From NCBI GenBank assembly GCA_035499005.1, contig DATJZQ010000013.1:12504-76503 (forward strand): a DNA stretch of 64,000 nt. Reading direction: 5' to 3'. Within the stretch, counting starts at the first letter, position 1; each line of letters starts with the position of its first letter. A program made the position numbers and the translations under genes. Positions 1 to 40,150 of the stretch are shown here, one piece after another. The notes below the pieces were generated by a model. It had not been told where the DNA came from. It was given only the letters and a program-made list of their open reading frames with translations, and ran no database searches. Source of the stretch: Burkholderiales bacterium (GTDB taxonomy: Bacteria; Pseudomonadota; Gammaproteobacteria; Burkholderiales; SHXO01).

Positions 1-169
<169 letters not shown>

Positions 170-191
170 GGCCGCTCGCCTACCCGCAGAA

Positions 192-2326: not shown

Positions 2327-2369
2327 TCATGCACCTCGTGAAGCCATGCTTTCAGTACGATCTCGACTG

Positions 2370-3077: not shown

Positions 3078-3838
3078 GGCAGCGCTCCGCCCAGATACGC
3101 TTCGATGACCGCAGGATCGCGCTGCACGGCGCCCGGCGCGCCCTCGGCAATCTTCTTGCCATAGTCCAGTACCGCGACACGGTCGCACAGCCCCATCACG
3201 AGCCTGACGTCATGCTCGATCAGCAGAATGGTGATGCCGTCGCCACGGATGCGCTCGAGCAACCCGCGCAGCGCTCGCGTTTCCGTGGCGTTCATCCCCG
3301 CCGCCGGCTCGTCGAGCGCGAGCAGCTTGGGATCCGTGGCGAGCGCGCGCGCGATCTCGAGGCGGCGCTGGTCGCCGTAGGCGAGATTCTTCGCGAGCGC
3401 GTGCGCGTGGCGCACGACGCCGACATAGTCCAGCAGCTCGTGCGACCGCTTCTGGATCGCCGCCTCTTCTGCAAGCGTTGCTCGATCTCGCAGCACGGCA
3501 CCCAGAGCGCCCGCGCGACCACGCAGATGCCGTCCCACCATCACGTTCTCGACCGCCGTCATGTTGGCGAACAGCCGGATGTTCTGAAACGTGCGGGCCA
3601 TCCCCGCCTCGACCACGTGGTTCGCCTTCTTTCCGGTCACGTTGATGCTGTTGAACAACACCGCGCCTGCGTCCGGCTTATAGAGGCCGGTGAGCACGTT
3701 GAAGAGCGTCGTCTTGCCCGCGCCGTTTGGCCCGATCAACCCGAAGATCTCGCCTGGCTCGATGGCGAGCGATACAGCGTTCAGGGCCTGCAGGCCGCCG
3801 AACGACTTGCTGATTTTGCGCGCTTCCAGCAGCGGCAT
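3074..3838 (-). CDS. livG: Branched-chain amino acid ABC transporter ATP-binding protein LivG
   Basis: 254 aa. Walker A GPNGAGKTT, LAYGDQRRLEIARAL, LLALDEPAAGM. Confidence 0.9.
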   Translation of the reverse strand: MPLLEARKISKSFGGLQALNAVSLAIEPGEIFGLIGPNGAGKTTLFNVLTGLYKPDAGAVLFNSINVTGKKANHVVEAGMARTFQNIRLFANMTAVENVMVGRHLRGRAGALGAVLRDRATLAEEAAIQKRSHELLDYVGVVRHAHALAKNLAYGDQRRLEIARALATDPKLLALDEPAAGMNATETRALRGLLERIRGDGITILLIEHDVRLVMGLCDRVAVLDYGKKIAEGAPGAVQRDPAVIEAYLGGALP

Positions 3839-3850
3839 GCGGTGGACGCG

Positions 3851-4957
3851 TCAAACCGCGCCGGGCGCGTGCGCCGAGGTGAGCTCGCGGCGGCGCGTGG
3901 GCGAAGGCCACAGCCCGGCGGGCCGCAGCAGCATCACCAGGATCAGAGCCAGACCGAACAGCAGCATGCGCAGGCTCTCTGGGTCGAGGATCACTTTTCC
4001 GAACAGCTGCTGCTGCATCGGGGCGGCGGTGTGTCGCAGCAGCTCGGGCAGTGTCGCCAACGTCAGGGCTCCGAGCACGACTCCGGCCACGTGCCCCATC
4101 CCGCCGAGCACCACCATGCAAAGGACTGTAATCGACTCCCACACGACGAAGCTCTCCGGGCTCACGAAGCCCTGCAGGCTGGAGAACAAACCGCCGGCCA
4201 CGCCACCGAAAGTGGCGCCCATGGCGAAGGCGAGCAGCTTGACGTTGCGGGTGTTGATCCCCATCGCCAGCGCCGCGATTTCGTCCTCGCGGATCGCGAC
4301 CCAGGCGCGCCCGAGGCGCGAATCCTCCAGACGGATGCAGACGAACATCACCAGCACAGTGAGTACCAAGAATAGATAGTAGTGCAGATGCGTCCCGGGA
4401 AAGGAGATGCCGAGCAGAGAGTTGGTGCGCCCGAAAGATACGCCCGCGATGTCGATCGGGTCGATCAGGTTGACCCCCTGCGGGCCGTTGGTGATGTTGA
4501 TCGGCGCGTTGAGGTTGTTCAAAAAAATGCGGATGATCTCGCCGAAGCCCAAGGTCACGATGGCGAGATAGTCGCCGCGCAACCGCAGCGTCGGCGCGCC
4601 CAGCACCACGCCGAAGAAAGCGGCCAGCACGGCACCCGCCGGCAGCAGCACCCACCAGGGTAGATGCAGGCCGAAGTGCGGCGAGGCGAGCAGCGCGTAC
4701 GTGTAGGCGCCCACGGCGTAAAACGCGATGTAGCCCAAATCGAGCAGCCCGGCAAAGCCGACCACGATGTTGAGGCCCAGCGCGAGCATGGTGTACAGCA
4801 GCGCGAGGTCGATGACGCGCACCCAGGTGCGCCCGACCGACGCATCCAGCACAAACGGCAGCACGGCGAGCGCTACGCCACTCGACAGCAGACCGAGCCA
4901 CTTTGCGCGGCGGTCGTGCCGCAACCAATGTGCAAGCTCACGCCATCTCGCGCTCAT
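3851..4957 (-). CDS. livM: Branched-chain amino acid ABC transporter permease LivM
   Basis: Track ORF 3851-5644 trimmed to MSARWREL (ATG 4955-4957, ATGA overlap with livH stop at 4954). Polytopic membrane protein with LivM-like LDLGYIAFYAVGAY. Confidence 0.85.
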   Translation of the reverse strand: MSARWRELAHWLRHDRRAKWLGLLSSGVALAVLPFVLDASVGRTWVRVIDLALLYTMLALGLNIVVGFAGLLDLGYIAFYAVGAYTYALLASPHFGLHLPWWVLLPAGAVLAAFFGVVLGAPTLRLRGDYLAIVTLGFGEIIRIFLNNLNAPINITNGPQGVNLIDPIDIAGVSFGRTNSLLGISFPGTHLHYYLFLVLTVLVMFVCIRLEDSRLGRAWVAIREDEIAALAMGINTRNVKLLAFAMGATFGGVAGGLFSSLQGFVSPESFVVWESITVLCMVVLGGMGHVAGVVLGALTLATLPELLRHTAAPMQQQLFGKVILDPESLRMLLFGLALILVMLLRPAGLWPSPTRRRELTSAHAPGAV

Positions 4958-7693: not shown

Positions 7694-9739
7694 TCATGTG
7701 GCGCGCAGCGCCTGCTCCAGCGCGGCCACCTGCTGTATCGGCGGCAGACATTCAACGCCCCGGCATACCCAGGCGTTGACGCCCGCCCGCGCGGGCTTGT
7801 CCATTGCAGCGGGTAGACCGGCGATACCATCGGGCAACGCGATCAACAGGGTCGAAGGTGCGTAGCGCTGCGCCAACCCCGCTTGCTCCTGCCAACGCGC
7901 AAGCTCGCGGGCTTCTCCGCGAAGAATGACGGTAGTCGGCGGCGCAACATGCTCCGCTAGCGCCACGCACAAGGTTGCGAACGCGCTGGGCTGTTCTCGC
8001 ATCTGCCCGGCAAACAAGCGCAGCGTGCGTTCGGCTGCCGTGAGATAGCGCGGCTCCCCAACCAGGTGAGCGAGCCGCTGCAGAGCGAGCGCGGCCATGC
8101 CGTTGCCCGAAGGCGCTGCGCCGTCCGGCCCGGGTTTGGGGCGCAGAATAAGCGCCTCGTGGTCGCGGCTGGTGAAAAAGAAGCCGCCGTCCGCGCGATC
8201 CTCGAAACCCTCGACTAACGCGTCCGCCACCGCGAGCGCGAAGCGCAGATCCTCGGCGCGGAATTCGGCTTGCATCAACTCCAGCGTCGCCGCGAGAAGG
8301 AAGGCGTGATCGTCGAGGTAAGCGTTGAGGTGCGCGCGGTCATCCTTGTAGGTCGCCAGCAGGCGTCCGTCACGCCACAGCGTCGCGCGAAGAAAATCCA
8401 GCGCACGGCGGGCCGACGCGACCCAGTCTTCGCGTCCGAACACACGACCGGCGTGGGCCATCCCCTCGATCATGAGCGCGTTCCACGACGTCAGGATCTT
8501 CTCGTCGCGCCCCGGGCGCACCCGCCGTTCGCGCCCTGCGAACAGCTTTGCTCGAGCCCGCGCAAGCAGGCTCTCGGCCGCATTCAACGACAGTCCGAGC
8601 GACGCTGCAGTCTGCTCCAGCGGCTGTGCGATATACAGATGCCAGTGCTCGCCTTCGAAGTTGGGAGCGCGCGTCAAGCCGAAATGCGCGCTCGCCACTA
8701 CGTACTCGTCCTCGTCGAGCACGCGTGCCGCCTCTTCCCGGCTCCACACGTAGTATTTGCCTTCCACGTGCTCCGAGTCGGCGTCGAGCGACGAGTAGTA
8801 GCCGCCTTCCGGCGACTGCATCTCGCGCATCACCCACGCAGCAGTCTGCCCGGTCACACGATGGAACAACTCATCCCGGGTCACGAGCCAGGCATCGGTG
8901 TACAACCGCAGCAGCGGCCCGTTGTCGTACAGCATCTTCTCGAAGTGCGGGATCATCCAGCGCTCGTCCACGCTGTAGCGGCAGAATCCGCCGCCGAGCT
9001 GGTCGTAGATGCCGCCCTCGGCCATCTTGCGCAACGTGACGAGTGCGACCTGGCGTGCGGCCTCATCGGCGTCCAGCACGCCGCGCCTCAAGGCCAAATC
9101 CAGCTCGGCGGGATGCGGAAATTTTGGCGCGCCGCCCAAACCTCCGTGCACCGGATCGAACATGCGCTTGAGCTCGGCCAGCGCAGCTGACATTGGTGCG
9201 CTGTCGAGCACCGCTTGTGTCGAGGGTGCCTGCGGAACCGTTTTCCCCAGCAGAGAAACGAGCTCCGCATTCTGCGCGGCAATCGCCTCGCCCTGTTCTC
9301 GGTAGATCGCGGCCACTCGCTCGAGCAGGTCGCCGAAGCCGGGCAGGTTGTAGCGCGCGGTCTTGGGAAAGTAGGTGCCGCCGAAGAACGGCCGCTGATC
9401 GGGCGTGAGGAACATCGTCAGCGGCCAGCCGCCGCCGCGCCGAGTAAGCATCTGATGAGCGGTCTGGTAGATCTGATCGATGTCGGGCCGCTCCTCCCGA
9501 TCGACCTTGATGCTGACGAACAGGCGATTCATCGTCGCCGCGATGGTCGAGTCTTCGAAGGACTCGTGCGCCATCACGTGACACCAGTGGCACGCGGAGT
9601 AACCGATCGACAACAAGATAGGCTTGTCTTGCTCGCGCGCAAGCCGTAGCGCTTCCTCGCCCCATGGATACCAATCCACGGGGTTGTCCGCATGCTGCTG
9701 CAGATAAGGGCTGGTCTGCTGCGCGAGTCGGTTGGGCAT
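7694..9739 (-). CDS. Thioredoxin-domain protein, YyaL/DUF255 family (N-terminal thioredoxin fold plus six-hairpin domain)
   Basis: Trimmed to [27 protein letters not shown] (ATG 9737-9739). Contains [13 protein letters not shown], typical of the DUF255/SPATA20-like family. Confidence 0.8.
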
Positions 9740-9761
9740 AGTCGACGCAGGTGCTGCCGTG

Positions 9762-11225
9762 TTACAAACCCAATTTGCCCCAGAGCTCATCCACCCGCGC
9801 TTTTACGTGGGGGGCCATCGCGATGACGGTGCCCCACTTGCGCGTAGTCTCTCCCGGCCACTTATTAGTAGCGTCGATGCCCAGCTTCGAGCCCAGGCCC
9901 GACACCGGGCTGGCGAAGTCGAGATAGTCGATCGGCGTGTTGTTCGCGATGATCGTGTCACGCTCGGGGTCGACGCGCGTGCTGAGCGCCCAGATCACTT
10001 CCTTCCAATCGCGCACGTCGACGTCGTCGTCCACCACGACGATGAACTTGGTGTACATGAACTGGCGCAGAAACGACCAGATGCCGAACATGACGCGCTT
10101 GGCGTGCCCGGGATATTGCTTGCGCATGCTCGCGACCGCCAGGCGATAGCTGCAAGCCTCGGGCGGCAGATAGAAGTCCACGATCTCTGGAAATTGCCGG
10201 GTGAGGAGCGGCACGAACACCTCGTTCAGCGCCACACCCAGCACTGCAGGCTCGTCCGGCGGTTTGCCCGTGTACGTGCTGTGATAGATCGGATCGCGCC
10301 GCATGCTGATGCGGTCGATGGTGAAGACCGGAAACTCCTCCTGCTCATTGTAGTAACCGGTGTGATCGCCGAACGGCCCTTCCAGTGCGACCTCGCCGGG
10401 CTGGATGTGCCCTTCCAGTACGATCTCGGCGCTCGCCGGCACCTGCAGCTCGGAACTCAGGCATTTCACCAGCTCGGTGCGCGCGCCGCGCAGAAGTCCC
10501 GCGAACTGGTATTCGCTCAACGTATCGGGTATCGGCGTGACTGCGGCGAGCATTGTCGCGGGATCGGCGCCGAGCGCCGCAGCGACCGCGAACGGCTGGT
10601 CTGGATGAGCGAGGCAATGGTCGCGGAAATCGAGCGCGCCGCCGCGCTGCGGCAGCCAGCGCATGATCACCTTGTTGCGCCCGAGCACCTGCTGGCGATA
10701 GATGCCCAGGTTCTGGCGCGCCTTGTTCGGCCCGCGCGTCACAGTCAGCGCCCAAGTGATGAGCGGGCCTGCGTCGCCTGGCCAGCAGGTCTGGATCGGC
10801 AGCCGCGACAGATCGACGTCGGCGCCTTCCCACACGATCTCCTGGCACGGCGCGCTGGAGCGCTCCTTCGGTGCCATGTCCAGCACCTTCTTCAGCACCG
10901 GCAGCTTGTCCCACGCGTCCTTGAGGCCACGCGGCGGCTCCGGTTCTTTCAGATACGCGAGCAGTTTGCCCACTTCGCGCAGGGCCTCGGCCGATTCCTC
11001 GCCCATGCCCATCGCGACGCGCCTGGGCGTCCCGAACAGATTGGCGAGCACGGGGATGCTGTAGCCCTTGGGCCTTTCGAACAGGATCGCAGGGCCGCCC
11101 TGCTTGAGACATCGATCGCAGATCTCGGTCATCTCGAGATTGGGCGAAACCTCGACCGCTGTGCGCTTGAGCTCGCCGCGCTGCTCGAGCAGACCGATGA
11201 AGGCGCGCAGGTCGTCGTAGCGCAT
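9762..11225 (-). CDS. ubiD: 4-hydroxy-3-polyprenylbenzoate decarboxylase UbiD
   Basis: 487 aa. N-terminus [21 protein letters not shown] and overall length are typical of UbiD. The start shares 1 nt with the SDR stop (TGATG). Confidence 0.9.
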
Positions 11226-11998
11226 CAGATGACCGGATTGGAGCCGCCGTCCATCGGGATGATCGCTCCGGTCACGTAACTCGCTCGATCCGAGGCGAGA
11301 AAAGCGACGACACTAGCGATCTCGTCTGCGCTCGCGTAACGCTGCAGCGGCACGCGGGACTGACCCTGCGTGAGCACCTCGTCTTCCGTCATCTTGCGAG
11401 CGGTTGCTTCGAGGCGCAGCGCTTCCTTGACGCGGTCGGTGAGCGTCGCGCCGGGGTTGACGGCGTTGATACGAATCCCTTTCGGTGCGTACACTTGAGC
11501 GAGGCCCACCGTCGCCAGCATCAGCGCCGAGTTGGCGGCGCCGCCCGGCAGGTGGATCGGGCTGGCGACTTTGCCGCCCATGCCGATCACGTTGACCACG
11601 CAGCCCGCGGCGCGTGATGCCATGTCGGGCAGCACAGCGTCCATCGCGTGGATGTAGGTGAAGTATTTCGCATCCATGGCCGCGTGCCAGGCGCTCGCGT
11701 CGAGATCGTCCGGAAGATAGCGCTTCGCTGCGCCGGCCGAGTTCACCAGGATGTCGATGCCGCCGAGCTTGTCCGTAACCTGGCGCGCCATGTCGCGTGC
11801 AGGCTCAGGGCGCGTCAGGTCGGCTGCAACCCAGAGTGTTGCGCCCGACGCGCCAGCCGCGCGCTCCAGATTCTCGCGGCTGCGCGAGGCGATGGCCACC
11901 TTGGCCCCCTCGGCGAGAAATGCCCGCGCGCAGGCGAGGCCGATGCCCTTGCTGCCGCCGGTGACCAGAACCACTTTGCCTTCCAGTTCGAGCTTCAC
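11225..11998 (-). CDS. SDR-family oxidoreductase
   Basis: 257 aa. Rossmann motif [12 protein letters not shown] motif. Lies between ubiA and ubiD. Confidence 0.8.
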
Positions 11999-12050: not shown

Positions 12051-12932
12051 TCAACGCGGCGCAGCAACCAGATACGCCAGCGCGATCCCCCCAAACACCG
12101 CGGCGCCGACCCAATTGTTGTCGTTGAAGGCGCGGAAACAACTACGCGGATCGCGCCCACGGATCAGCGTGTATTGATACAGCACCAGCACGAGCGCGCA
12201 CAACAGCCCGGCGTAGTACGGCCAGCCCAACCCAAGCCACCACCCGATGCTGCACATGAGCCCTAAGAACGCGGCGTGGCACAGCATCACCGCGGCGACA
12301 TCGTAGCGGCCGAACAGGATCGCCGAAGTCCTGATCCCGATCTTGCGGTCGTCCGCGCGATCGACCATCGCGTACTCGGTGTCGTAGGCGATGGTCCAGA
12401 ATATGTTGGCGAGGAGCAGCACCCAGGCGATGACAGGCAGGCTGTTGGTCTGAGCCGCATACGCCATAGGAATGCCGAATCCGAAAGCTACGCCGAGGTA
12501 GGCCTGAGGCAGCGCAAGAAAGCGCTTGGTGAACGGGTAGCTGACAGCGAGAAACAGCCCACAGAAAGACAGCAGCACCACCAGCCGGCCAAGCGGCAGG
12601 ATCAGAACGAATGCAACGAGGGCGAGCAGCGCGGCGAGAATCCACGCCTCTTTCACGCTCACCAGGCCCGCCGCGAGCGGCCGGTTGCGCGTGCGCTCGA
12701 CATGCGGGTCGAAGTTGCGGTCGGCGAAATCGTTCACCGCCACGCCGGCCGAGCGCATGAGCAGCGTGCCCAGCGCAAAGATCCAGACGATGCGCCAGTT
12801 CGGCCGTCCGTCGGCGCTGAGCCACAGCGCCCATAGCGTCGGCCACAGCAGCAGCAGCGTGCCGATGGGCTTGTCCAGGCGCAGCAGCTTTTCGTACAAG
12901 TCCAGCCGCCGCAGGATCGCCGAAACGTTCAT
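12051..12932 (-). CDS. ubiA: 4-hydroxybenzoate polyprenyltransferase UbiA
   Basis: Trimmed to MNVSAILRRLDLYEKLLRLDKPIGTLLLLWPTLWAL (ATG at 12932). UbiA motifs NDFADRNFD and YDTEYAMVDRADD. Confidence 0.85.
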   Translation of the reverse strand: MNVSAILRRLDLYEKLLRLDKPIGTLLLLWPTLWALWLSADGRPNWRIVWIFALGTLLMRSAGVAVNDFADRNFDPHVERTRNRPLAAGLVSVKEAWILAALLALVAFVLILPLGRLVVLLSFCGLFLAVSYPFTKRFLALPQAYLGVAFGFGIPMAYAAQTNSLPVIAWVLLLANIFWTIAYDTEYAMVDRADDRKIGIRTSAILFGRYDVAAVMLCHAAFLGLMCSIGWWLGLGWPYYAGLLCALVLVLYQYTLIRGRDPRSCFRAFNDNNWVGAAVFGGIALAYLVAAPR

Positions 12933-13116
12933 GACTACACCACGAGCCGCCAATGTGCTACGACGCTCAGAAAGCATTGAGTCACATCGTGCGGTAATCC
13001 GCGAACCGAATCTGAAAACGAGTCATCCCGCTTGTCGCAAACAAGTTGGCTACCAAGCGAAAGCTCCTTATCAAGGATTCGGTTTCCCTTGGCGTCGTGG
13101 CGGCTCATTCGAGTGC

Positions 13117-13635
13117 TCAGAGCTTGGCGCGAAGCTGGATGGCAGTCAGGATCCCCTGCAGGATTGCCCTCGGCGTCGGAGGGCAGCCGGGCACTGCGAC
13201 GTCCACCGGAATGACATTCGAGACTCGTCCGCAGCTCGCGTAGCTCTCGCCGAAGATGCCTCCGGTACAGCCGCAGTCGCCAATCGCGACGACGAGCTTG
13301 GGCTCGGGCGTCGCATCGTAGGTACGCTTGAGCGCCGTTTCCATATTCCGCGACACGGGCCCTGTCACGAGCAGCATATCGGCGTGGCGCGGGCTCGCCA
13401 CAAAACGGATGCCGAGGCCCTCGAGATTGTGGTACGGATTGTTGGCCGCGTGTATCTCCAGCTCGCATCCGTTGCACGAGCCCGCATCGACGTGGCGGAT
13501 GGTGAGTGCGCCGGCAAATGAGCGCAGCACGCTGTCTTCCAGCTGCTGCTGCAGCACGCGCAAGCTCTCATCGGCCTCCGGGGGCGACTCGCTCACGATG
13601 CCGCTCTGCGCGATCTTCTTCAGGATCTGATACAC
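13117..13635 (-). CDS. Ehr/hydrogenase-4-like complex, NuoB/HycG/HyfI-type small subunit
   Basis: 172 aa. The [4Fe-4S]-type cysteines are retained in GSCNGCE, GDCGCTGG and PGCPP. Last gene of the six-gene operon. Confidence 0.85.
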   Translation of the reverse strand: MYQILKKIAQSGIVSESPPEADESLRVLQQQLEDSVLRSFAGALTIRHVDAGSCNGCELEIHAANNPYHNLEGLGIRFVASPRHADMLLVTGPVSRNMETALKRTYDATPEPKLVVAIGDCGCTGGIFGESYASCGRVSNVIPVDVAVPGCPPTPRAILQGILTAIQLRAKL

Positions 13636-13648
13636 GTCTGGACCACGC

Positions 13649-15190
13649 TCACAGGTCTACCCCGCTGTAGCTCAGATTGAACGACTTGTTGATGAGCGGA
13701 AAGTCGGGAACGATGTTGTCGATTACCGCGTGTTCGAGCAGCGGCCAGTTCTGCCATGAGGGATCGTGCGGGTGGACGCGCGCCAGCGATCCTCCCGGCC
13801 CCGCTTCCAGCGCAACCAGCACTTCACCGCGCCAGCCTTCGACCCAGCCCAGCCCCACGCTGCCCTCGGCCGGAAGGGGCAGGCTTCCGCGAATCTCGCT
13901 GTGCGGCAGCCGGTCCAGGATCACCCAGCACAGATCGAGCGACTCCAGAATCTCGTCGAAACGCACCGTCACGCGCGCGGCGACGTCGCCGGTGCGATGC
14001 GTCGCCATGCGCACGTCGAGGCTGTCGTACGGTGTGGGCGGGAACTGAGTACGGAGGTCCCAGGACATGCCGCTCGCGCGGCCGGCGAGGCCGCACAAGC
14101 CGAGCCGGTCAGCGAGGTCCGGCGCGACCCGCCCGGCACCGATGAAACGGTCCTGCAGCCCGGGATGCTCGTCGTAGATGACTCTGAGGGAACGGATCGC
14201 CGTGCGCAGCGCGCCGATCTCGGCGCGCATGGCCTGCGCCCCCGCACTGTCGATGTCGCGCGCAACGCCGCCCGGAACGATCGCGTCCATCAGGTAGCGA
14301 TGCCCGAACACCGTGTGGTTGAGCCGCAGCACGTCCTCCTTGAGACGGGAGAACTGCGCGAGTCCGAAGGCGAGACCCGCGTCGTTGCCGAGGAACCCGA
14401 GGTCACCGAGATGGTTGGCGATGCGCTCGCGCTCCAGCAGCAGCGCGCGCAGCCACTGGGCGCGCTCGGGCGGCGTGGCGAACGCCGCGCCTTCGGCCGC
14501 CATGCAGTAGGCCCAGCCGTACGCGACCGTCGAATCTCCGCTCACGCGGCCAGCCAGCCGCGCCGCATCCACGATGCTCATCGACTCGAACAGCTTTTCG
14601 ACGCCCTTGTGCTTGTAGCCGAGGCGTTCTTCGAGGCGCAGCACGCGCTCGCCGACGATCGAGAAACGGAAGTGGCCCGGCTCGATCGTGCCCGCGTGCA
14701 CAGGCCCCACCGGAATCTCGTGCACGCCGTCGCCGCGCACCGCGACAAAGGGGTAGTGCTCCGCCGAGGCCTGATGCATCGCCTTCACGTCAAAGCCCTT
14801 GCGCAACGGAAATTCGTGCTCAGCCCACGCCCCGTGCCGCAGCCATTGCCGAGCATCGCCGCCCTCGGCACGCACACCGAGCAGGTCGAAGGCCGCGCGC
14901 TGCATGCGGTTGGCGGCGGGAAACACGTCGGCGATGCCGGGAAACTCGGGCCGCTGCGCGGAGACAGGCAGCGTCAGCCACACGAGCCCGGAACGGACCG
15001 TAAGCGCCATGTGCACCTCGAAGGCATGACGACCGACGATCTCCGAGGCCCACAACGCGACCAGCCGTCCACCCTTCCCGCGCACCTGTTCGGCGAGCGA
15101 GCGCCATTGAGCGGCATCGACACCACCGCGCCAGACCGGCATGGCGCCGGGCACAGGGCTCAGCTCGACCGGAAAGTCTTCGATCTGCAT
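13649..15190 (-). CDS. Ehr/hydrogenase-4-like complex, NuoC-NuoD fused large subunit (HycE/HyfG-like) lacking Ni-Fe ligands
   Basis: 513 aa. Group-4 large-subunit hallmarks GPVHAGTIEPGHFRF and ERLGYKHKGVEKL are present. The RxCGxC position reads GRVSGDS and the DPCxxC position reads NLSYSG, followed directly by the stop. Confidence 0.85.
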   Translation of the reverse strand: MQIEDFPVELSPVPGAMPVWRGGVDAAQWRSLAEQVRGKGGRLVALWASEIVGRHAFEVHMALTVRSGLVWLTLPVSAQRPEFPGIADVFPAANRMQRAAFDLLGVRAEGGDARQWLRHGAWAEHEFPLRKGFDVKAMHQASAEHYPFVAVRGDGVHEIPVGPVHAGTIEPGHFRFSIVGERVLRLEERLGYKHKGVEKLFESMSIVDAARLAGRVSGDSTVAYGWAYCMAAEGAAFATPPERAQWLRALLLERERIANHLGDLGFLGNDAGLAFGLAQFSRLKEDVLRLNHTVFGHRYLMDAIVPGGVARDIDSAGAQAMRAEIGALRTAIRSLRVIYDEHPGLQDRFIGAGRVAPDLADRLGLCGLAGRASGMSWDLRTQFPPTPYDSLDVRMATHRTGDVAARVTVRFDEILESLDLCWVILDRLPHSEIRGSLPLPAEGSVGLGWVEGWRGEVLVALEAGPGGSLARVHPHDPSWQNWPLLEHAVIDNIVPDFPLINKSFNLSYSGVDL

Positions 15191-15200
15191 ATGGGTGCGG

Positions 15201-16652
15201 TCAGCCGATCATCCGCGCCGCGGCCCGGTACCACTGCGCGAGGTAAGGCGGGATGTAAAGGCCGAGCAGCAAGACCAGCAAGAGGTGCACGAACACCGGC
15301 AACAGCGCCGGCGGATGTGGCAGCCGCTGCGCCGTGCTGTCGCCGAATACCATCGCCTGCACTTTGCTGAAGATCGCTGCGAATCCGACGCCGAGCGCCG
15401 CCAGCAACAGCGGCGTCGCCCACGGCTGTTCTCGCATGGCGGTGGTGAGGATCAGGAACTCGCTGGCGAACACACCGAAGGGCGGAATGCCGAGGATGGC
15501 GATGCTCCCGAGCATCAGGCCCCAGCCGACCGCGGGGCTCACCTGGATCAGCCCGCGGATCTGCGCGATGACCTGCGTCCCGGTCTTCTGCGCTGCATGC
15601 CCGACGGCGAAGAAGATGGCCGATTTGGTCAGCGAGTGCGCGGTCATGTGCAGCAGTCCAGCGAACGACGCGACCGGCCCGCCCATGCCGAAAGCAAACG
15701 TGATGATGCCCATGTGCTCGATCGACGAGTAGGCAAACAGCCGCTTGACGTCGGTCTGGCGAGACAGGAAAAAAGCGGCGACCAGTGCGGACAGCAGGCC
15801 GAAACCCATCATGAGGTTGCCGGCAAGGTGAGAGCCGAGCGCGCCGTCCACCAGCACTTTGTTGCGCACCACCGCGTACAGCGCCACGTTCAGCAGCAGC
15901 CCCGACAACACCGCCGAGATTGGCGTCGGGCCCTCGGCGTGCGCATCCGGCAGCCAGTTGTGCAGCGGCACCAGGCCGACTTTCGTCCCGTAGCCGACGA
16001 GCAGGAAAACGAAGGCGATGGACAACACGTTCGGCTCGAGCTGGTCGCGCACCGCCTGCAGGTGGGTCCACAGCAGCGCGCCGCCCCCCGCACCCAGCAC
16101 TTTCTCGGCCGCCAGGTAGAGCAGGATGGTGCCGAACAGCGCCTGTGCGATGCCCACACCGCACAGGATGAAATACTTCCACGCGGCCTCGATCCCAGCC
16201 GCGGTGCGATACAGGCTCACCAGCAGAACAGTCGTAAGCGTGGCCGCCTCCATCGCCACCCACAGGATCCCCACATTGTTGGTGGTGAGCGCCAGCAGCA
16301 TGGTGAACATGAACATCTGGTACATGCTGTGGTAGAGGCGGAGCCGGCCCGCAGTGAGCTTGCCCCGCTCCTGCTCGACGCGCATGTAGACGCGACCGAA
16401 CAGCGCCGTGGTGAAGCCGACGAAGGCGGTGAGCGCGACCAGAAAAACGTTGAAGGCGTCGACGAAGAACAGCTCGCGCCCGGCTGTCTGCGGTCCCAGG
16501 GAGACGATGCGTGCCGTGAGCGCGAGCGCGGCGAGCAGTGTGAGCAGGCTCACCGAGGCATTCAGCTCCGCCGCCCATGGTCGATGCCCCCGGAGCGCCA
16601 GCAGCAGCGCTCCAGTCAGCGGCAACCCCAGGACCAGCACGATCTCCGTCAC
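15201..16652 (-). CDS. Ehr/hydrogenase-4-like complex, HyfF-like (NuoM/N-type antiporter-like) membrane subunit
   Basis: 483 aa polytopic protein. Proton-antiporter-family segments: WVAMEAATLTTVLLV, VPLHNWLPDAHAEGPTPISAVLSG. GTG start with GTGA overlap on the hyfE-like stop. Confidence 0.85.
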   Translation of the reverse strand: MTEIVLVLGLPLTGALLLALRGHRPWAAELNASVSLLTLLAALALTARIVSLGPQTAGRELFFVDAFNVFLVALTAFVGFTTALFGRVYMRVEQERGKLTAGRLRLYHSMYQMFMFTMLLALTTNNVGILWVAMEAATLTTVLLVSLYRTAAGIEAAWKYFILCGVGIAQALFGTILLYLAAEKVLGAGGGALLWTHLQAVRDQLEPNVLSIAFVFLLVGYGTKVGLVPLHNWLPDAHAEGPTPISAVLSGLLLNVALYAVVRNKVLVDGALGSHLAGNLMMGFGLLSALVAAFFLSRQTDVKRLFAYSSIEHMGIITFAFGMGGPVASFAGLLHMTAHSLTKSAIFFAVGHAAQKTGTQVIAQIRGLIQVSPAVGWGLMLGSIAILGIPPFGVFASEFLILTTAMREQPWATPLLLAALGVGFAAIFSKVQAMVFGDSTAQRLPHPPALLPVFVHLLLVLLLGLYIPPYLAQWYRAAARMIG

Positions 16653-17314
16653 GTCTTTTCCTTCAGCTTCTCGAGGTGATGAATATCCAGGCTGTCGAAC
16701 GTCTCTCGGATCTGGAAGAAGAAGATGCCGAAGATAAAGGCCCCGACCAGCACGTCCAGCGCGATGCCCAGCTCAACCACCATCGGCATGCCGTAAGTGG
16801 CGCTGGTGGCGGCGAAGAACAGGCCATTCTCCATGGCGAGAAAGCCGATCACCTGCGGCACGGCCTTGCGCCGCGTGATCATCATGAGGAACGACAGCAG
16901 CACGCTGGCCATCGCCATCCCGAGTGAGCTGCGCGTGATCGTGCCGGCCAGCTGTGAGATGGGCAGCGCCAGATTGAACGCCACGATCACCAGCAGGATG
17001 CCCACCAGCATGGTGGTCGGGATGTTGATCAAGGTCTCCACGTCCCAGCGGATGTTCAGACGGTCGATTAGGCGGTGCAGCAGCCACGGCAGCGCGAGCA
17101 CCTTGATGCCGAGCGTCAGCGCGGCAGAGAAGTACAAGTGAGGCTGGTGGGTAGCGAAGGCCACCACGGCCGTGTTGACCGACAGCACCAGTCCCTGCAG
17201 CGCGAACAGGTAGATCAGCCGCAGGATGCGTCGCTGCGAGACCATCGCGAAGGCGATCAACAACAGCAGGCACGCCATGAGATTGATGAGCTGGTGCGTC
17301 AAGGGCAGCGTCAT
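16649..17314 (-). CDS. Ehr/hydrogenase-4-like complex, HyfE-like (NuoK-related) membrane subunit
   Basis: Track ORF 16649-18178 trimmed to MTLPLTHQLINLMACLLLL (ATG 17312-17314, ATGA overlap). 221 aa hydrophobic protein with FLAMENGLFF, typical of HyfE. Confidence 0.8.
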   Translation of the reverse strand: MTLPLTHQLINLMACLLLLIAFAMVSQRRILRLIYLFALQGLVLSVNTAVVAFATHQPHLYFSAALTLGIKVLALPWLLHRLIDRLNIRWDVETLINIPTTMLVGILLVIVAFNLALPISQLAGTITRSSLGMAMASVLLSFLMMITRRKAVPQVIGFLAMENGLFFAATSATYGMPMVVELGIALDVLVGAFIFGIFFFQIRETFDSLDIHHLEKLKEKT

Positions 17315-18264
17315 CCCGCGCTCCCGAGCAGCAGCCGCGTCAGCATCCCCAGCACAGCGAGCAGGAACGCCATGCCCAGGAATTCGGGCACGCGGAAGAT
17401 CCGCATCTTCGCCGATACCGTCTCCAGCGCCGCGAGCGCGGCGCCGCCCAGCAGCAGCTTGGCGAGCAGCGCCACCACCGACAGCGGCATCACGCCCCAT
17501 TGTCCCGCGGCGGCGATGCCCCAGGGCAGAAACAGCGCGATCCCGATGCCGGCATAAGTCATCAGTTTGAGCGCATGCGCCCACTCGAGCAGGGCGAGAT
17601 GGCGCGCGGAATACTCCAGGATCAGCGCCTCGTGGATCATGGTGAGCTCCAGATGCGTGGCCGGATTGTCCACCGGGATGCGCGCGTTCTCCGCCAGCAG
17701 GAGCATGACAAAGGCGACTCCCGCAAAGGCAAGGCTCGGGTAGAGGGTAAGCTCGCGATGAGCCAGCGTCTCGACGATGGTGGTGAGCGCGGTGGACTGG
17801 CTGATCAGCGCCGGCGTGAAGAACACCATCAGGAGCGCCGGCTCCGCGAGGCTCGCCACGAACATCTCCCGGCGCGCGCCGAGCGAGCCGAACGCGGTGC
17901 CGACGTCCATGGCCGCCAGCGACATCCACACGCGCGCCAGCGCCAGCAGGCCGACCAGCGCGATGACGTCCGCAGCAGGAGAGAAGGGGAGGTCGGTCGC
18001 CAGCAGCGGAACGATGCTCACCGCCAGCACCATGCAGCCAAACACTGCGTAAGGCGCGAAACGGAACAGCCACGAGGCGTTGTGCGCCACGACCGCGTCC
18101 TTGCGGAACAGCTTCGCGATCACGCGATAGGGCTGCAGCAGACCCGGGCCCGACCTGTTCTGCAGCCATGCACGGCACTGATTGACCCAGCCCACCACGA
18201 GCGGCGCCAGCAGCACCGCCAGCAGCGTCTGGAACAGCTGGGAAGCGAGGAAACCCGGGTTCAT
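17311..18264 (-). CDS. Ehr/hydrogenase-4-like complex, HyfC/HycD-like (NuoH-type) membrane subunit
   Basis: Track ORF 17311-18816 trimmed to MNPGFLASQLFQTLLAVLLAP (ATG 18262-18264, ATGA overlap). 317 aa, NuoH/HycD-like (AENARIPVDNPATHLELTMIHEA). Confidence 0.85.
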   Translation of the reverse strand: MNPGFLASQLFQTLLAVLLAPLVVGWVNQCRAWLQNRSGPGLLQPYRVIAKLFRKDAVVAHNASWLFRFAPYAVFGCMVLAVSIVPLLATDLPFSPAADVIALVGLLALARVWMSLAAMDVGTAFGSLGARREMFVASLAEPALLMVFFTPALISQSTALTTIVETLAHRELTLYPSLAFAGVAFVMLLLAENARIPVDNPATHLELTMIHEALILEYSARHLALLEWAHALKLMTYAGIGIALFLPWGIAAAGQWGVMPLSVVALLAKLLLGGAALAALETVSAKMRIFRVPEFLGMAFLLAVLGMLTRLLLGSAG

Positions 18265-20261
18265 TGGATGAGGAGCAGCAGCACGAGCAGCGTGGCGAAG
18301 CTGTAGATCAGGTACAGGTGGATGCGGCCGTGGTGCACGACGGCGACCAGCGAGGAGACGAATTCCGCAAGCCTGGTCACGGGCACGTAAATCCAGTACC
18401 AGAACCGGTCCTCTATCCTTGATCGGTACAGCGGTTGAGCGTCGAACGGGCTCGGCTGCAGGCGCTCCACCTTGAAGAATGCCTCGAAGATCTGCTTGAC
18501 GGGCTGGCTGAAGCCCTCGGCCGAATCCTGCATGCGGGGCTCGAGCGGACCGAATCCGCAATCCCACGGAGCGGAACGTCGCACGCGCCCGTGATAGAAG
18601 CGCCGCACGAGGACAAACGTAGCGAGCACGGTCAGCACGATGCCGAGCAGGAACAGCGGCGCACTGTAGCTGGCACGTTCGGGCTGCAGCGCGGTCAGGA
18701 ACAACCAGCTCGACCCCTGCGTGGCATCGTGCAGCGTCGCCCCGACCAGCACGCGCGCAATCGGGTCCACCGCGGCGAGCACCAGCGCCGGCAACAGGCC
18801 CAGCACGACGCACCACCCCGCCAGCCAGGCGAGGCCCGCGCGCTCCCAGCGATCGGCGTCATGCGCCTGCGCCAGTTCCTCGCGCGGCAGCCCGAGAAAT
18901 ACCACCCCGTAGAACTTGACCATGACGTAGCCCGCCATCGCCACTGCCAGCGCCAGCGCAGCCGTGGCAACCGGAACCAGCATGCTGAGGTAGCTGCTGG
19001 GCAGGCTGGGCGAGAACAAGAACGCCTGGAACAGCATCCACTCCGAGGCGAAACCATTGAGCGGCGGCAGGCCGGCGATGGCGAGCGCACCGATCAGCCC
19101 CGCTGCCGCAACCCACGGCATGCGGCGAATCAAGCCGCCGAGCTTGCCCAGGCTGCGGTGGCTGGTGGCGTGCATGACCGAACCGGTCACCAGGAACAGC
19201 AGGCTCTTGAACAGCGCGTGGTTGAGGCAGTGATACAGCGTGGCTGCGAGCGCCAGGCCAGCCAACACGTTCATGTCGTAGCTGTGGAACAGGGTTGTCA
19301 GACCGAAGCCGGCCAGGATGACGCCGAGGTTTTCGATGGATGAGTAAGCGAGCAGGCGCTTCATATCGGTCTGCACGGCCGCGAACAGCGCGCCGAACAG
19401 CGCCGTCGCGAGCCCCAGCGACAGCGCTGCGACGCCCCACCACCAGACGCGCGTGTGCAACAGATCGAAGCTCACCCGCAGCAGGCCGTAGATGGCTGTC
19501 TTGAGCATCACGCCGCTCAGGAGCCCGGACACTGGAGAGGGCGCCGCGGGATGCGCCTCGGGCAGCCAGACGTGAACGGGCAGAAACCCGGCCTTGGCGC
19601 CGAAGCCGAACAGGGCCAAAACAAAAGCGATCGAAGCCCATGGCGGCGACAGGGTGTTGCCGCGCATGGCGTCGAATGTGTAGCTCCACTGGCCGAGCTG
19701 CAGCGTCCCGAAGCAGAGCAGGATCGACAGCGCGCCGATGTGCGCGACAATCAAGTAAAGCAGCCCGGCGCTGCGGATCTGCGCGACCCGATGGTCGGTC
19801 GTAACTAGAAAATAGGACGCAACCGCCATCGTTTCCCACGCGACCATGAACAGATACGCGTCGTCGGCGAGCAGCACCACCGCCATGCTGGCGAGGAAGA
19901 CGTGGTACTGCAGACAGATCAGCCGGATGTCGCCGTCGCCGCTCTTCTCGAAGTAGCCCGCGGAGTACAGGGAGACGCCGGTGCTGACCGCGCCGAGCAG
20001 CACCAGGAAGAAGGCCGACAGCGAGTCGAGGCGCACATGAAACGGAAGGTCCGGGAGGCCGAACGGCAAGATGAGAGACTGCGGGTCGGCGCCGAGCGTG
20101 GTGCAGGCAGCCACGGCGAGCACCAGGCCGCCGAGCGCGCCGAGCGGAAAGAATGCGCGTGCGTGCGCACGCCGGCTCGCCTTGGAGGAAAGCCCGAACA
20201 GGCCGACCGCGATCCAGTAGAGCGGCACGGCGAGGACGGCAGCGGCGCTCCAACTAGACAC
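18261..20261 (-). CDS. Ehr/hydrogenase-4-like complex, HyfB/HycC-like (NuoL-type antiporter-like) membrane subunit
   Basis: 666 aa. N-terminal architecture and segments (RLDSLSAFFLVLL, MVAWETMAVASYFLV, LPEAHPAAPSPVSGLLSGVM) match HyfB/HycC. The start at 20261 lies 8 nt inside the recG 3' end. Confidence 0.85.
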   Translation of the reverse strand: MSSWSAAAVLAVPLYWIAVGLFGLSSKASRRAHARAFFPLGALGGLVLAVAACTTLGADPQSLILPFGLPDLPFHVRLDSLSAFFLVLLGAVSTGVSLYSAGYFEKSGDGDIRLICLQYHVFLASMAVVLLADDAYLFMVAWETMAVASYFLVTTDHRVAQIRSAGLLYLIVAHIGALSILLCFGTLQLGQWSYTFDAMRGNTLSPPWASIAFVLALFGFGAKAGFLPVHVWLPEAHPAAPSPVSGLLSGVMLKTAIYGLLRVSFDLLHTRVWWWGVAALSLGLATALFGALFAAVQTDMKRLLAYSSIENLGVILAGFGLTTLFHSYDMNVLAGLALAATLYHCLNHALFKSLLFLVTGSVMHATSHRSLGKLGGLIRRMPWVAAAGLIGALAIAGLPPLNGFASEWMLFQAFLFSPSLPSSYLSMLVPVATAALALAVAMAGYVMVKFYGVVFLGLPREELAQAHDADRWERAGLAWLAGWCVVLGLLPALVLAAVDPIARVLVGATLHDATQGSSWLFLTALQPERASYSAPLFLLGIVLTVLATFVLVRRFYHGRVRRSAPWDCGFGPLEPRMQDSAEGFSQPVKQIFEAFFKVERLQPSPFDAQPLYRSRIEDRFWYWIYVPVTRLAEFVSSLVAVVHHGRIHLYLIYSFATLLVLLLLIQ

Positions 20262-22386
20262 GCAGGTACTCTTGCTTCCCGCCGAGCCAGCGCTGCACGT
20301 GCAGATGCGCCCGCTCCGGCCATTTGCGCAGCATCAAGTCCGCGGCGTCGCGCGCTGCTTCGAGCAGATCCAGGTCACGCTCGAGGTCGGCGAAGCGCAG
20401 CATGGGCAGGCCGCTCTGTCGAGCGCCGAGCAGCTCGCCGGGACCGCGCATGCGCAGATCGTGACGCGCGACCTCGAAGCCGTCCGAGCTTTCGTAGATG
20501 ATGCGCAGCCTCTCGCGCGCCGTGTTCGATAAGGAGTTCTGGTAAAGCAGGATGCATGCGCTGCTGTCTGCGCCCCGGCCCACCCGTCCGCGCAGCTGGT
20601 GCAGCTGTGCGAGGCCCATGCGTTCGGCATTCTCGATCACCATCAGCGACGCGTTGGGCACATCCACGCCGACCTCGATTACTGTCGTGGCCACCAGCAG
20701 CTGTACGGCACCGGATTGGAAAGCCTGCATTACCGCGGCCTTATCGGCGCTGCCGAGCCGACCATGCGCGAGGCCTACGGACAGCTCGGGGAACGTGCGC
20801 TTGATCCGATCGAAAGTGTCGAGAGCGGTCTGCAACAGCAAGGCCTCCGACTGTCTGCGGCCGGACCGGGGCCGCCTTGCCCCGGCCGGATCCACAGAGG
20901 AGATCCCCGCCTCCCCCTCCTCGATGAGCGGGCACACCCAATAGGCCTGGCGTCCCTCGGAACACGCATCGCGCACGCGCGCGATCACTTCGTCGCGGCG
21001 CTTGTCTGACACCAGCTTGGTGATCACCGGGGTGCGCCCCGGCGGCAGCTCGTCGATGACCGACACGTCGAGGTCGGCGTAAAAGCTCATCGCCAGCGTG
21101 CGTGGGATGGGCGTGGCGCTCATCATCAGCTGGTGCGGCTGCCCCGCGTCAGCCGCGCCTTTGCGCCGCAGCGCGAGGCGTTGCAACACGCCGAAGCGAT
21201 GCTGCTCGTCGACGACGGCGAGACCCAGGCGCTTGAAGCGCACCTCGTCCTGGAACAGGGCGTGGGTACCCACCACGATTTTGGTCTCGCCGCGCGCCAG
21301 GCTCTCGAGCTGCGCGCGCTTGTTCCCGCGCCGGACACCTCCAGCCAGCCTGGCGACGTCCAGGCCGAGGGGCGACAACCACTGGGAGAATTTCGCATAG
21401 TGCTGCTCGGCCAGGATTTCGGTGGGCGCCATGACCGCAACCTGGTAGCCGCTTTCGATCGCCTGCAGCGCCGCGAGCGCGGCGACAATGGTCTTGCCGC
21501 TGCCGACGTCGCCTTGCAGCAGCCTCTGCATCGGGTGCGGGCGGGCGAGGTCGGAGCGGATCTCGGCGAGCGTGCGCTGCTGGGCCTTGGTGAGCTTGAA
21601 CGGCAGTTGCGCGAGCAGTTGCCCGGACAGCCGGGCATGCCGGGTAAGGCGCGGTGCGGCAACGGTCTGACGCTTGCGGTAGTGCATCCGCATGGACAGC
21701 TGCTGCGCCAGCAACTCGTCGAACTTGACGCGCTGCCAAGCCGGATGGGTGCGCTCCTCCAGCGCGTCCAGGCGCGCATCCGGCGGCGGGTTGTGCAGGT
21801 ACGCGACGCTCTGCTTTACCGATGGCAGCCGCAGCGGCGCCATGATCTCCGGCGGAAGCGTGTCGGCGAGATCCGCCGCATGCAGCGCGCGTTGCACCAG
21901 ACGGCGCAGAACCGCTTGCGACAGGCCGGCAGTCGTGGGGTAAACCGGCGTCAGCGATTGGGGCAGCGTCTCGTCCGCCCGCAGCACACGCACGCGGGGA
22001 TGAATCATCTCAGCCCCGAAGAAGCCCTTGCGCAGCTCGCCCAGCAACCGCAGCCGCGCGCCCGGAGTGAGCTGCTTGAGGTAACTCGGGTAGAAGTGGA
22101 AGAAGCGCAGCTGTACCGGATCCTCGCCGTCGCGCACCCGGCACACGAGCGTACGCTTCGGCCGATACTGGATCAGGGCCTCCTCCACCTCTGCTTCGAT
22201 CTGCACCGTCTCGCCGGCCGGCGCATCGTGCACACGCACGACCTTGGTTTCATCCTCGTAGCGCAAGGGCAGATGGAAGACGAGATCGAGCTCGCGCCTC
22301 ACCCCGAGGCGGGTCAGCTTCTGCCGGGCGGCCGCCGACGTACCGGCTATTGCCGACGCCGACGTTGCGTCAAGTGCGGCTTTCAC
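20254..22386 (-). CDS. recG: ATP-dependent DNA helicase RecG
   Basis: Wedge-domain motif HLPLRYED, Walker [30 protein letters not shown] chose the GTG start at 22384-22386 because it gives an N-terminal length like E. coli RecG. The track ATG at 22476 would run deep into ridA. Confidence 0.85.
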
Positions 22387-22762
22387 CGACAACGAGTATC
22401 GCGTCGATCTCCACCAGAGCGCCGCGCGGCAGCGCCGCAACCGCGACCGCAGCGCGTGCTGGATAGGGCTGCGCAAAATACTGAGCCATCGCTTCGTTCA
22501 CGCGAGCAAAGTGTCCCATGTCGGTGAGGAACACCGTCACTTTCACGGCGTCATCGAGCGAGGCGCCTGCGGCGGCCGCCACCGCACGCAGATTGCGCAG
22601 CACCTGGTGGATCTGTGCGTCCACGCCTTCGGCGAGCGTCATCGTCGCAGGCTGCAACCCGACCTGGCCGGACAGGTAGACGGCGTCGCCGACGCGCACA
22701 GCCTGCGAATACGTTCCGATCGCCGGCGGAGCGTCGCTGGTGTGGATGGCTTGCCTGGTCAT
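22370..22762 (-). CDS. ridA: RidA/YjgF-family reactive intermediate deaminase
   Basis: Trimmed to [22 protein letters not shown] (ATG at 22762). 130 aa. C-terminal [19 protein letters not shown] is typical of RidA. Confidence 0.85.
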
Positions 22763-40100: not shown

Positions 40101-40150
40101 TTCGGCTAGAATTCTACTGGACTCGCGGGATCGGGGACTCGCTCACGGGC

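Follow-up and report, generated by a model that had tools for sequence, protein, structure and literature searches.

Group-4-like relatives of hydrogenases that lack the ligands of nickel and iron have been described under two names, Hyq and Ehr, which have been grouped as group-4 subtypes without canonical Ni-Fe ligands (PMC4758237). Hyq is encoded in Azorhizobium caulinodans by the hyqRBCEFGI operon (AZC_4360-4355; Ng et al., 2009, PMC2650096; Sprecher et al., 2012, PMC3357923). Its large subunit, HyqG, is a 504-amino-acid (aa) NuoC::D fusion devoid of both CxxC motifs, its small subunit, HyqI, keeps four cysteines (Cys-55, 58, 112 and 152), and the complex has been portrayed as a complex I core of six subunits, with quinone as its inferred reaction partner (PMC3357923). 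Ehr stands for Ech- or energy-converting-hydrogenase-related complexes, which are group-4-like, lack the Ni and Fe ligands and have been described as being of unknown function (PMC6349859, PMC10284858, PMC10432482). The name was given to complexes of Geobacter, of which EhrA, C, L and S are listed in PMC7894505, and Rv0081-87 of Mycobacterium tuberculosis is an Ehr-type locus (PMC6728331); the prior descriptions by Coppi (2005) and Marreiros (2013) are considered here as they are cited in PMC6349859, PMC10284858 and PMC4758237. Here, we compare with these systems a six-gene cassette carried by a 64-kb stretch of contig DATJZQ010000013.1 of a Burkholderiales bacterium, the whole of which is referred to below as the window.

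The cassette is very probably a member of the Ehr/Hyq family and not a NiFe hydrogenase; as judged from its sequence, the encoded complex would be related, in minimal form, to the membrane hydrogenases of group 4 and to complex I. An initial annotation of the large-subunit gene implied that its features were new. This is not the case, as the same facts have been published for Hyq (PMC3357923) and for Ehr complexes, and the window locus is a further betaproteobacterial member of a known family rather than a new phenomenon. The genes and the motifs discussed below are the following:

18261-20261, minus strand: EhrA (HyqB, HyfB-like), antiporter-type membrane subunit (NuoL-like), 666 aa; NCBIfam NF005086 'hydrogenase 4 subunit B', E=3.3e-255; Pfam Proton_antipo_M
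17311-18264, minus strand: EhrB (HyqC, HyfC-like), NuoH/HycD-like subunit, 317 aa; aligns with HyfC, HycD and NuoH
16649-17314, minus strand: EhrC (HyqE, HyfE-like), small membrane subunit, 221 aa; NCBIfam NF008556 'hydrogenase 4 membrane subunit', E=1.2e-23; alignment with HyfE
15201-16652, minus strand: EhrD (HyqF, HyfF-like), antiporter-type membrane subunit (NuoM/N-like), 483 aa; NCBIfam NF005045 'hydrogenase 4 subunit F', E=1.9e-261
13649-15190, minus strand: EhrL (HyqG-like), large subunit, NuoC-NuoD fusion without the Ni-Fe cysteines, 513 aa; Pfam Complex1_30kDa PF00329 and Complex1_49kDa PF00346
13117-13635, minus strand: EhrS (HyqI-like), small subunit (NuoB/HycG-like), 172 aa; Pfam Oxidored_q6, E=2.5e-32
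14519-14548, minus strand: former proximal Ni-Fe motif RxCGxCxxxH, here RVSGDSTVAY (EhrL aa 215-224), by alignment to HycE
14381-14383, minus strand: codon of EhrL D270, in the column of the complex I quinone-site Asp (E. coli NuoCD D325, Thermus Nqo4 D139), by the alignments
13652-13678, minus strand: former C-terminal Ni-Fe motif DPCxxCxxR, here NLSYSGVDL (EhrL aa 505-513), followed by the TGA stop at 13649-13651, by alignment to HycE
EhrL aa 162-176: hydrogenase-type block GPVHAGTIEPGHFRF
EhrL aa 188-200: hydrogenase-type block ERLGYKHKGVEKL
13462-13482, minus strand: EhrS cluster motif with C54 and C57 (GSCNGCE)
13258-13281, minus strand: EhrS cluster motif with C121 (GDCGCTGG)
13177-13191, minus strand: EhrS cluster motif with C151 (PGCPP)

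The six genes occupy positions 13117-20261 of the minus strand in the order EhrA-B-C-D-L-S, which corresponds to HyqB-C-E-F-G-I. Upstream of ehrL on this strand lie the four membrane-subunit genes, neighbouring ones overlapping by 4 nt, which is indicative of an operon; the cassette is translationally coupled, and ehrS starts 13 nt past the ehrL stop codon. The start of ehrB is an internal ATG ('MNPGFLASQ') within the open reading frame 17311-18816, and ehrB overlaps each neighbouring gene by 4 nt; ehrC starts at 'MTLPLTHQ', the NF008556 match covering residues 295-506 of a long reading frame. A plus-strand reading of 13649-15190 and 13117-13635 was rejected, as the translations are full of stops.

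The former Ni-Fe site of EhrL

In a phmmer search of the PDB, the best match for EhrL was HycE of E. coli (7z0s_E; E=1.5e-56, 30% identity), with RVCGICGFAH paired with RVSGDSTVAY and DPCYSCTD with NLSYSGVD. MAFFT alignments of EhrL with HycE, HyfG and NuoCD from E. coli K-12 (NC_000913) give the same equivalences, placing S217, S220, S507 and G510 in the columns of HycE C241, C244, C531 and C534, respectively, and the final residue, L513, in the column of R537, the cleavage Arg. The initial annotation had reported, from an alignment by eye, two Cys-to-Ser replacements in the proximal motif and a Cys-to-Ser and a Cys-to-Gly replacement in the C-terminal motif just before the stop. All the motifs that it quoted are present and its register was right, no cysteine being present in the ligand columns. 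EhrL lacks the two CxxC pairs by which [NiFe] group-4 large subunits are recognized.

The replacements are shared by the relatives. In an alignment of 18 family members that share 67-84% identity with the window protein, S217, D219, S220, S507 and G510 do not vary, and the large subunit of the window clade has no conserved cysteine anywhere; conservation of the substitutions across relatives argues against decay. The annotation's remark that hydrogenase-type blocks are kept and that the gene is not decayed also stands, since ehrL is full length, conserved in 80 loci and has at least 8000 homologues in the database.

At the C-terminus, the stop codon of 79 related loci is TGA in 32, TAG in 30 and TAA in 17. 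This variety at one and the same position indicates that the TGA of the window gene does not encode selenocysteine, a reading that was rejected because TAG and TAA are equally placed in related loci. A frameshift hiding a C-terminal extension, which the initial annotation had named as a possible source of error, was rejected as well, given that ehrS starts only 13 nt on and that the aligned relatives all end in the same D-L. As the annotation stated, there is no C-terminal peptide for a HycI-type endopeptidase to remove. The accompanying observation that EhrL ends exactly at the cleavage motif is true but not unusual: E. coli NuoCD terminates at the same column, and the extension length is zero in 17 of the 17 nearest four-Cys hydrogenase representatives. 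Because the nearest cysteine-containing relatives likewise lack the peptide, a terminus at the cleavage column is not diagnostic by itself, and it is ordinary in this part of the superfamily rather than a consequence of metal loss.

The alignments predict that the Ni-Fe site has been replaced by a conserved polar, acidic pocket formed by S217, D219, S220, D270, S507 and G510. Only four conserved positions, D219, D270, S507 and G510, set the cysteine-less family apart from its nearest true hydrogenases, and one of these is the Asp involved in the quinone chemistry of complex I; nearly all other conserved positions, for instance, H165, E170, H173, R454 and Y508, are common to the sister hydrogenases. 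D219 is 92% conserved among 65 cysteine-less representatives (see below) and is specific to them. D270 falls in the column of NuoCD D325 and Thermus Nqo4 D139 in both the phmmer and the MAFFT alignments, and this column contains Asp in 88% of the 65 cysteine-less representatives and Gly in 76% of the nearest true hydrogenases. The initial annotation described the pocket as neither a Ni-Fe site nor an obvious NuoD quinone site, which holds, the quinone-site His and Tyr being replaced by I169 and G218, with the qualification that the quinone-site Asp is present. The pocket is thus not a Ni-Fe site, nor is it a canonical quinone site; it has acquired two carboxylates and, given D270, is partly complex-I-like.

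An AlphaFold2 model of the EhrL monomer, built from the 18-sequence alignment, has a predicted template modelling (TM) score of 0.75 and a mean predicted local distance difference test (pLDDT) score of 68.8, the low-confidence parts being loops expected to contact partner subunits. In a fold search, the model matched HycE best (7z0s_E, TM 0.78), followed by E. coli NuoCD. None of the PDB sequence and fold matches listed is described as an Ehr-type complex.

The small subunit and the membrane arm

The retention of the cysteine motifs GSCNGCE, GDCGCTGG and PGCPP in the NuoB-like partner, also reported in the initial annotation, is confirmed across the family: aligned with HycG and HyfI, C54, C57, C121 and C151 of EhrS are at least 95% conserved in 74 orthologues, as are the motifs SCNGCE, G.C...GG and GCPP. 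EhrS thus carries the four cysteines expected of a group-4 proximal [4Fe-4S] subunit, and one cluster is predicted to be kept. The C-terminal tail of HycG and HyfI, about 80 aa long, is missing from EhrS.

In the membrane arm, the EhrA columns of NuoL E144, K229, H334 and H338 are identical in 58 of 58 orthologues, and the column of NuoL K399 contains Glu in all 58, as in HyfB. The Glu of transmembrane helix (TM) 5, the Lys of TM7, the His of TM8/11 and the Glu of TM12 of EhrD are conserved in 68 of 68 orthologues. The antiporter charged-residue pattern of EhrA and EhrD is the same as that of E. coli HyfB and HyfF. EhrB retains the acidic TM5-6 loop motif P.DNP.THLELTM.HEA..LEYS and membrane Glu residues. 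All charged coupling residues of the NuoH-like and both antiporter-like subunits are intact.

Relatives and genomic surroundings

The Ehr/Hyq family is widespread. Among the top 120 EhrL homologues listed, lengths range from 419 to 537 aa, mostly 507-537 aa, and the few that carry a name belong to assemblies of Betaproteobacteria/Burkholderiales. A species-level genome scan (one genome per species) yielded at least 573 confirmed relatives, of which the best 80 loci were examined. These are mostly betaproteobacterial, with 55-83% identity, and the A-B-C-D-L-S order is identical wherever the contig covers the cassette. The hosts include Sulfuricella, Sulfuriferula, Gallionella, Sideroxyarcus, Thiobacillus denitrificans, Usitatibacter and Methylotenera, and family members are also found in Burkholderia cepacia-complex bacteria and Acetobacteraceae. 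Furthermore, HMMER searches against 1.84 billion cluster representatives produced 1040 matches at E<=1e-30, and the full-length members of the best 150 were aligned. They comprise 65 cysteine-less representatives of 50%-identity clusters, with the motifs R-x-[S/A/C]-G-D-[S/T/E/N] and N-x-S-Y-[S/A]-G-x-D-L, and 17 true four-Cys hydrogenases (RxCGxC ... ELCYxCxDR), which are the nearest cysteine-containing relatives at 34-42% identity.

Both kinds of cassette occur side by side in a locus from a betaproteobacterial metagenome-assembled genome (L026), where a paralogous four-Cys cassette lies immediately upstream of the cysteine-less one. The partial second cassette spans positions 5-4389, and its large subunit (1677-3587, plus strand) contains ERICGVCSAAH and ends in ELCYSCTDR followed directly by the stop, without a C-terminal extension. 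The presence of a true hydrogenase beside a cysteine-less relative shows stable divergence. Another locus (L075) carries a second, divergent EhrA/EhrB pair downstream.

Public annotation of the cysteine-less large subunits is inconsistent and misleading. Among the alphaproteobacterial HyqG-like proteins (P0135 and relatives), several public records bear the name 'hydrogenase expression protein HypE' or 'nickel-dependent hydrogenase large subunit', whereas the betaproteobacterial counterparts are called 'NADH-quinone oxidoreductase subunit C'. Literature searches for the expression or function of the betaproteobacterial cassette in Gallionellaceae and Burkholderia returned nothing.

In the window, the cassette is flanked by the following genes:

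20254-22476: recG, upstream; its stop codon is overlapped by the ehrA start
12051-12977: ubiA, downstream
11225-11998: short-chain dehydrogenase/reductase gene, downstream
9762-11225: ubiD, downstream
7694-9790: gene for a DUF255 thioredoxin-like protein, downstream

The remainder of the window consists of housekeeping genes. A scan of approximately 40 window genes revealed no hyp, hycI or fdh domains, the ferredoxin motif CxxCxxCxxxCP is absent from all six frames of the 64 kb, and a promoter and terminator scan gave matches solely within coding sequence, at near-chance levels. Downstream of ubiD and the DUF255 gene, a small mono-haem cytochrome c gene (PF00034; 7279-7632, minus strand) is encoded on the same strand as the cassette. 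A Methyltransf_28 gene (PF02636) is located at 38922-40142 (minus strand), 24 kb from the Ehr cassette. A mitochondrial member of the Methyltransf_28 family, NDUFAF7/MidA, methylates an arginine of NDUFS2, the NuoD homologue.

Clustering of the flanking reading frames within 10 kb on each side of about 60 loci uncovered no conserved partner gene, only clade-specific housekeeping neighbours (metG, dnaE, recG, ubiA/ubiD, apbC and SulP), and no sulfur-metabolism genes linked to the cassette. The recG...ubiA/ubiD arrangement is found in only about ten of the closest loci, metG adjoins the cassette in about 20, and the ferredoxin motif occurs in the flanks of a single related locus. The variable flanks suggest that the cassette is a self-contained module: it never includes a subunit for electron input, nor is a dedicated partner for this task encoded beside it. 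In about eight loci from lithoautotroph-type genomes, a SulP-family anion transporter gene with a STAS domain lies directly upstream of ehrA on the same strand (e.g. L017:2736-4898 and L069:3081-4766), a putative hint of a possible anion or bicarbonate connection.

Candidate functions and comparison with known systems

With about even confidence, we favour a redox-coupled ion pump of the Ehr/Hyq type, not a NiFe hydrogenase, as the function of the complex. This grade blends our high confidence in the family identity and in the conclusion that the complex is no NiFe hydrogenase with that in the specific electron donor and acceptor, which are proposed tentatively and are somewhat more probably wrong than right. 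One-electron chemistry at the single EhrS cluster and the adjoining pocket would be coupled to the translocation of H+ (or Na+). A soluble low-potential carrier, ferredoxin or flavodoxin, might dock directly on EhrS, where NuoI otherwise sits, a proposal prompted by the missing NuoI, and a second substrate would enter the EhrL/EhrS/EhrB cavity to reach the D219/D270 pocket. A membrane quinone would be the leading, if doubtful, candidate for this substrate, a guess based on the gain of the complex I Asp (D270). The reaction may be reversible: in the forward direction the complex would pump ions, and in reverse the proton-motive force would power the production of reduced ferredoxin.

Several observations weigh against this explanation. 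The columns of the quinone head-group ligands, NuoCD H224 (Thermus H38) and Y273 (Thermus Y87), contain I169 and G218 in EhrL, and Ile and Gly are the rule at these positions among the cysteine-less relatives. The Asp column of the 'DPC' motif, proposed as a signature of quinone reactivity (PMC4758237), is Asn in the window protein, and the cluster ligation of EhrS is of the CxxC type (SCNGCE), compared to the tandem CC of NuoB (SC--CYVE) that binds cluster N2. In the EhrL model, residues 138-202 and 477-513, precisely the segments that form the pocket, have pLDDT values under 50. The adjacency of ubiA/ubiD is confined to one clade and may be simply inherited; the placement of the cassette between recG and ubiA/ubiD probably reflects a gene order passed on by descent and not a functional tie to quinone. 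Furthermore, published descriptions demonstrate no activity, donor or acceptor for a purified Ehr or Hyq complex, and the in vivo genetics tying Azorhizobium Hyq to H2 turnover (PMC3357923) is left unaccounted for.

Among the alternatives, the complex might be a redox-independent, Mrp-like cation/proton antiporter, with EhrL and EhrS in a structural or regulatory role, for instance, as a redox or ligand sensor gating transport. Two antiporter-like subunits and a HyfE-like subunit with complete charged-residue chains, the absence of an electron-input module and of a conserved partner gene, and housekeeping surroundings such as recG and metG are all compatible with this possibility. However, the cluster cysteines and the pocket residues D219, D270, E170 and R454 are strongly conserved, which is hard to explain for a purely structural cap, and true Mrp antiporters are not known to have NuoB or NuoD homologues. 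We regard an antiporter as unlikely.

Alternatively, a small substrate other than quinone could be converted at the lone [4Fe-4S] cluster or next to it, by analogy with MBS (Mbx), a system with a hydrogenase-like module that lacks a Ni-Fe site and reduces sulfane sulfur at the proximal cluster. Such chemistry would suit a pocket that is polar and acidic rather than aromatic and His-lined as for quinone; many of the hosts are sulfur or iron lithotrophs (Sulfuricella, Sulfuriferula, Thiobacillus and Gallionella), and the MBS large subunit MbsL (6u8y_L) is a detectable homologue of EhrL (E=7e-19), although the similarity is far below that to HycE. By contrast, the NuoI-like input subunit and the many Mrp subunits of MBS are absent from the window cassette, no sulfur-metabolism genes are linked to it, and the family extends to the Burkholderia cepacia complex and Acetobacteraceae, which are not sulfur lithotrophs. 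MBS-like catalysis therefore seems improbable for the window complex.

A cysteine-free hydrogenase, that is, an H2:quinone oxidoreductase ('endo-hydrogenase') that would activate or evolve H2 at a non-NiFe site as proposed for A. caulinodans HyqBCEFGI, appears very unlikely. In Azorhizobium, where the six hyq genes follow the same order, HyqG lacks the CxxC motifs and HyqI keeps four Cys, deletion of hyqRI resulted in approximately 15-fold more H2 release in N2-fixing cultures and in less H2 evolution at <1 uM O2, and a nifK hupSL mutant still evolves H2 (PMC3357923). On the sequence side, the window protein shares 48% identity with an alphaproteobacterial group of 504 aa in length that has the HyqG-numbered Cys-491 and Cys-497, and the hydrogenase-type Glu170, His173 and Arg454 are kept in EhrL. 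Yet the support from Azorhizobium consists of whole-cell genetics, with a deletion that also removes the regulator gene hyqR, and the authors themselves consider a Ni-Fe site 'uncertain, if not unlikely' (PMC3357923). The additional HyqG cysteines are Ile and Leu in the window protein, EhrL of the window clade is devoid of any conserved Cys, and later papers treat Ehr complexes as non-hydrogenases (PMC10284858, PMC10432482, PMC6728331). The idea that Hyq provides nitrogenase with reduced ferredoxin was set aside, since the nifK mutant still evolves Hyq-dependent H2.

It is also a distant prospect that the Ser-Gly-Asp-Ser, Asp270 and Ser-x-x-Gly pocket forms, together with the lone [4Fe-4S] cluster, a new kind of catalytic site coupled to proton pumping. 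Such a site could possibly be a cysteine- and nickel-free centre that activates H2 or reduces protons, as the in vivo genetics of Azorhizobium Hyq would require, or accommodate a small substrate that has escaped recognition. Finally, the view that the gene is a hydrogenase pseudogene in decay, or that an artefact of sequencing or assembly conceals cysteines or a C-terminal extension, for which only the absent cysteines speak, is refuted by the intact reading frame, the same residues in 80 loci with stop codons varying at one position, the replacement motif in 65 diverse representatives and the four-Cys paralogue adjoining the cysteine-less cassette of L026.

For the study of Ehr function, the locus adds D219, D270 and C54 as concrete targets for mutagenesis, and the Burkholderia cepacia complex, Sulfuriferula multivorans and Sulfuricella sp. 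T08 as candidate culturable hosts; the window locus alone does not make the question more tractable. In evolutionary terms, Ehr/Hyq complexes are placed between membrane hydrogenases and complex I.

Among the closest known systems is Hyq, with six structural genes of the same content and order (hyqBCEFGI), no equivalents of HyfA, HyfD or HyfH, a large subunit without CxxC motifs and small-subunit Cys55/58/152 corresponding to Cys54/57/151 of EhrS. The orthology with A. caulinodans Hyq is deduced by way of the Acetobacteraceae group, in which the positions of Cys-491 and Cys-497 agree with those published for HyqG, and not from the HyqG sequence itself; a homologue search seeded with an alphaproteobacterial representative listed only Acetobacteraceae among its top 120 matches. 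The window locus differs from Hyq in its betaproteobacterial (Burkholderiales-type) host and in having recG upstream in place of the hyqR activator and a NifA/sigma-54 context. In addition, the conserved Cys-258/491/497 signature of the Hyq type is absent from the window clade, Cys-491 and Cys-497 (PLCNKSFNCSYSG) being Ile and Leu in the window protein (PLINKSFNLSYSG). Ehr of G. sulfurreducens (EhrABCDLS, GSU0739-45) and M. tuberculosis Rv0082-0087 resemble the window complex, by their published descriptions, in the hydrogenase-like large subunit free of NiFe ligands, the [4Fe-4S] small subunit and the NuoL-, NuoH-, HyfE- and NuoM-like membrane subunits (PMC7894505, PMC6349859, PMC10284858, PMC6728331).

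With Hyc (Hyd-3, 7Z0S) and Hyf (Hyd-4), the window EhrL shares the GPxHxxxxEPGHFR block, the Arg of the ExPRG motif and Glu170, and the membrane subunits reach the curated NCBIfam cutoffs of the HyfB and HyfF models. By contrast, the four Ni-Fe cysteines are replaced, the 32-residue C-terminal peptide and the HycG/HyfI tail are missing, and none of HycB/HyfA, the HycF/HyfH ferredoxin subunits, FdhF, HycI, HycH or Hyp is encoded near the cassette. The Q-module of complex I (NuoCD/NuoB/NuoH; Nqo4/6/8) is similar in its cysteine-less large subunit ending at the same column, in the NuoC-NuoD fusion as found in E. coli, in the Asp of NuoCD D325 and Nqo4 D139, and in a single-cluster NuoB homologue accompanying a NuoH homologue. 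However, the quinone-site His224 and Tyr273 are Ile and Gly in EhrL, the CxxC of EhrS is not a tandem CC, identity to NuoCD is 21%, and the cassette lacks NuoI, NuoA, NuoJ, NuoK and the N-module. The MBS/Mbx system of P. furiosus (6U8Y) is likewise derived from a hydrogenase and has given up the Ni-Fe site while keeping the proximal cluster and ion-translocating subunits, but it is archaeal and includes a NuoI-like subunit and a full Mrp module.

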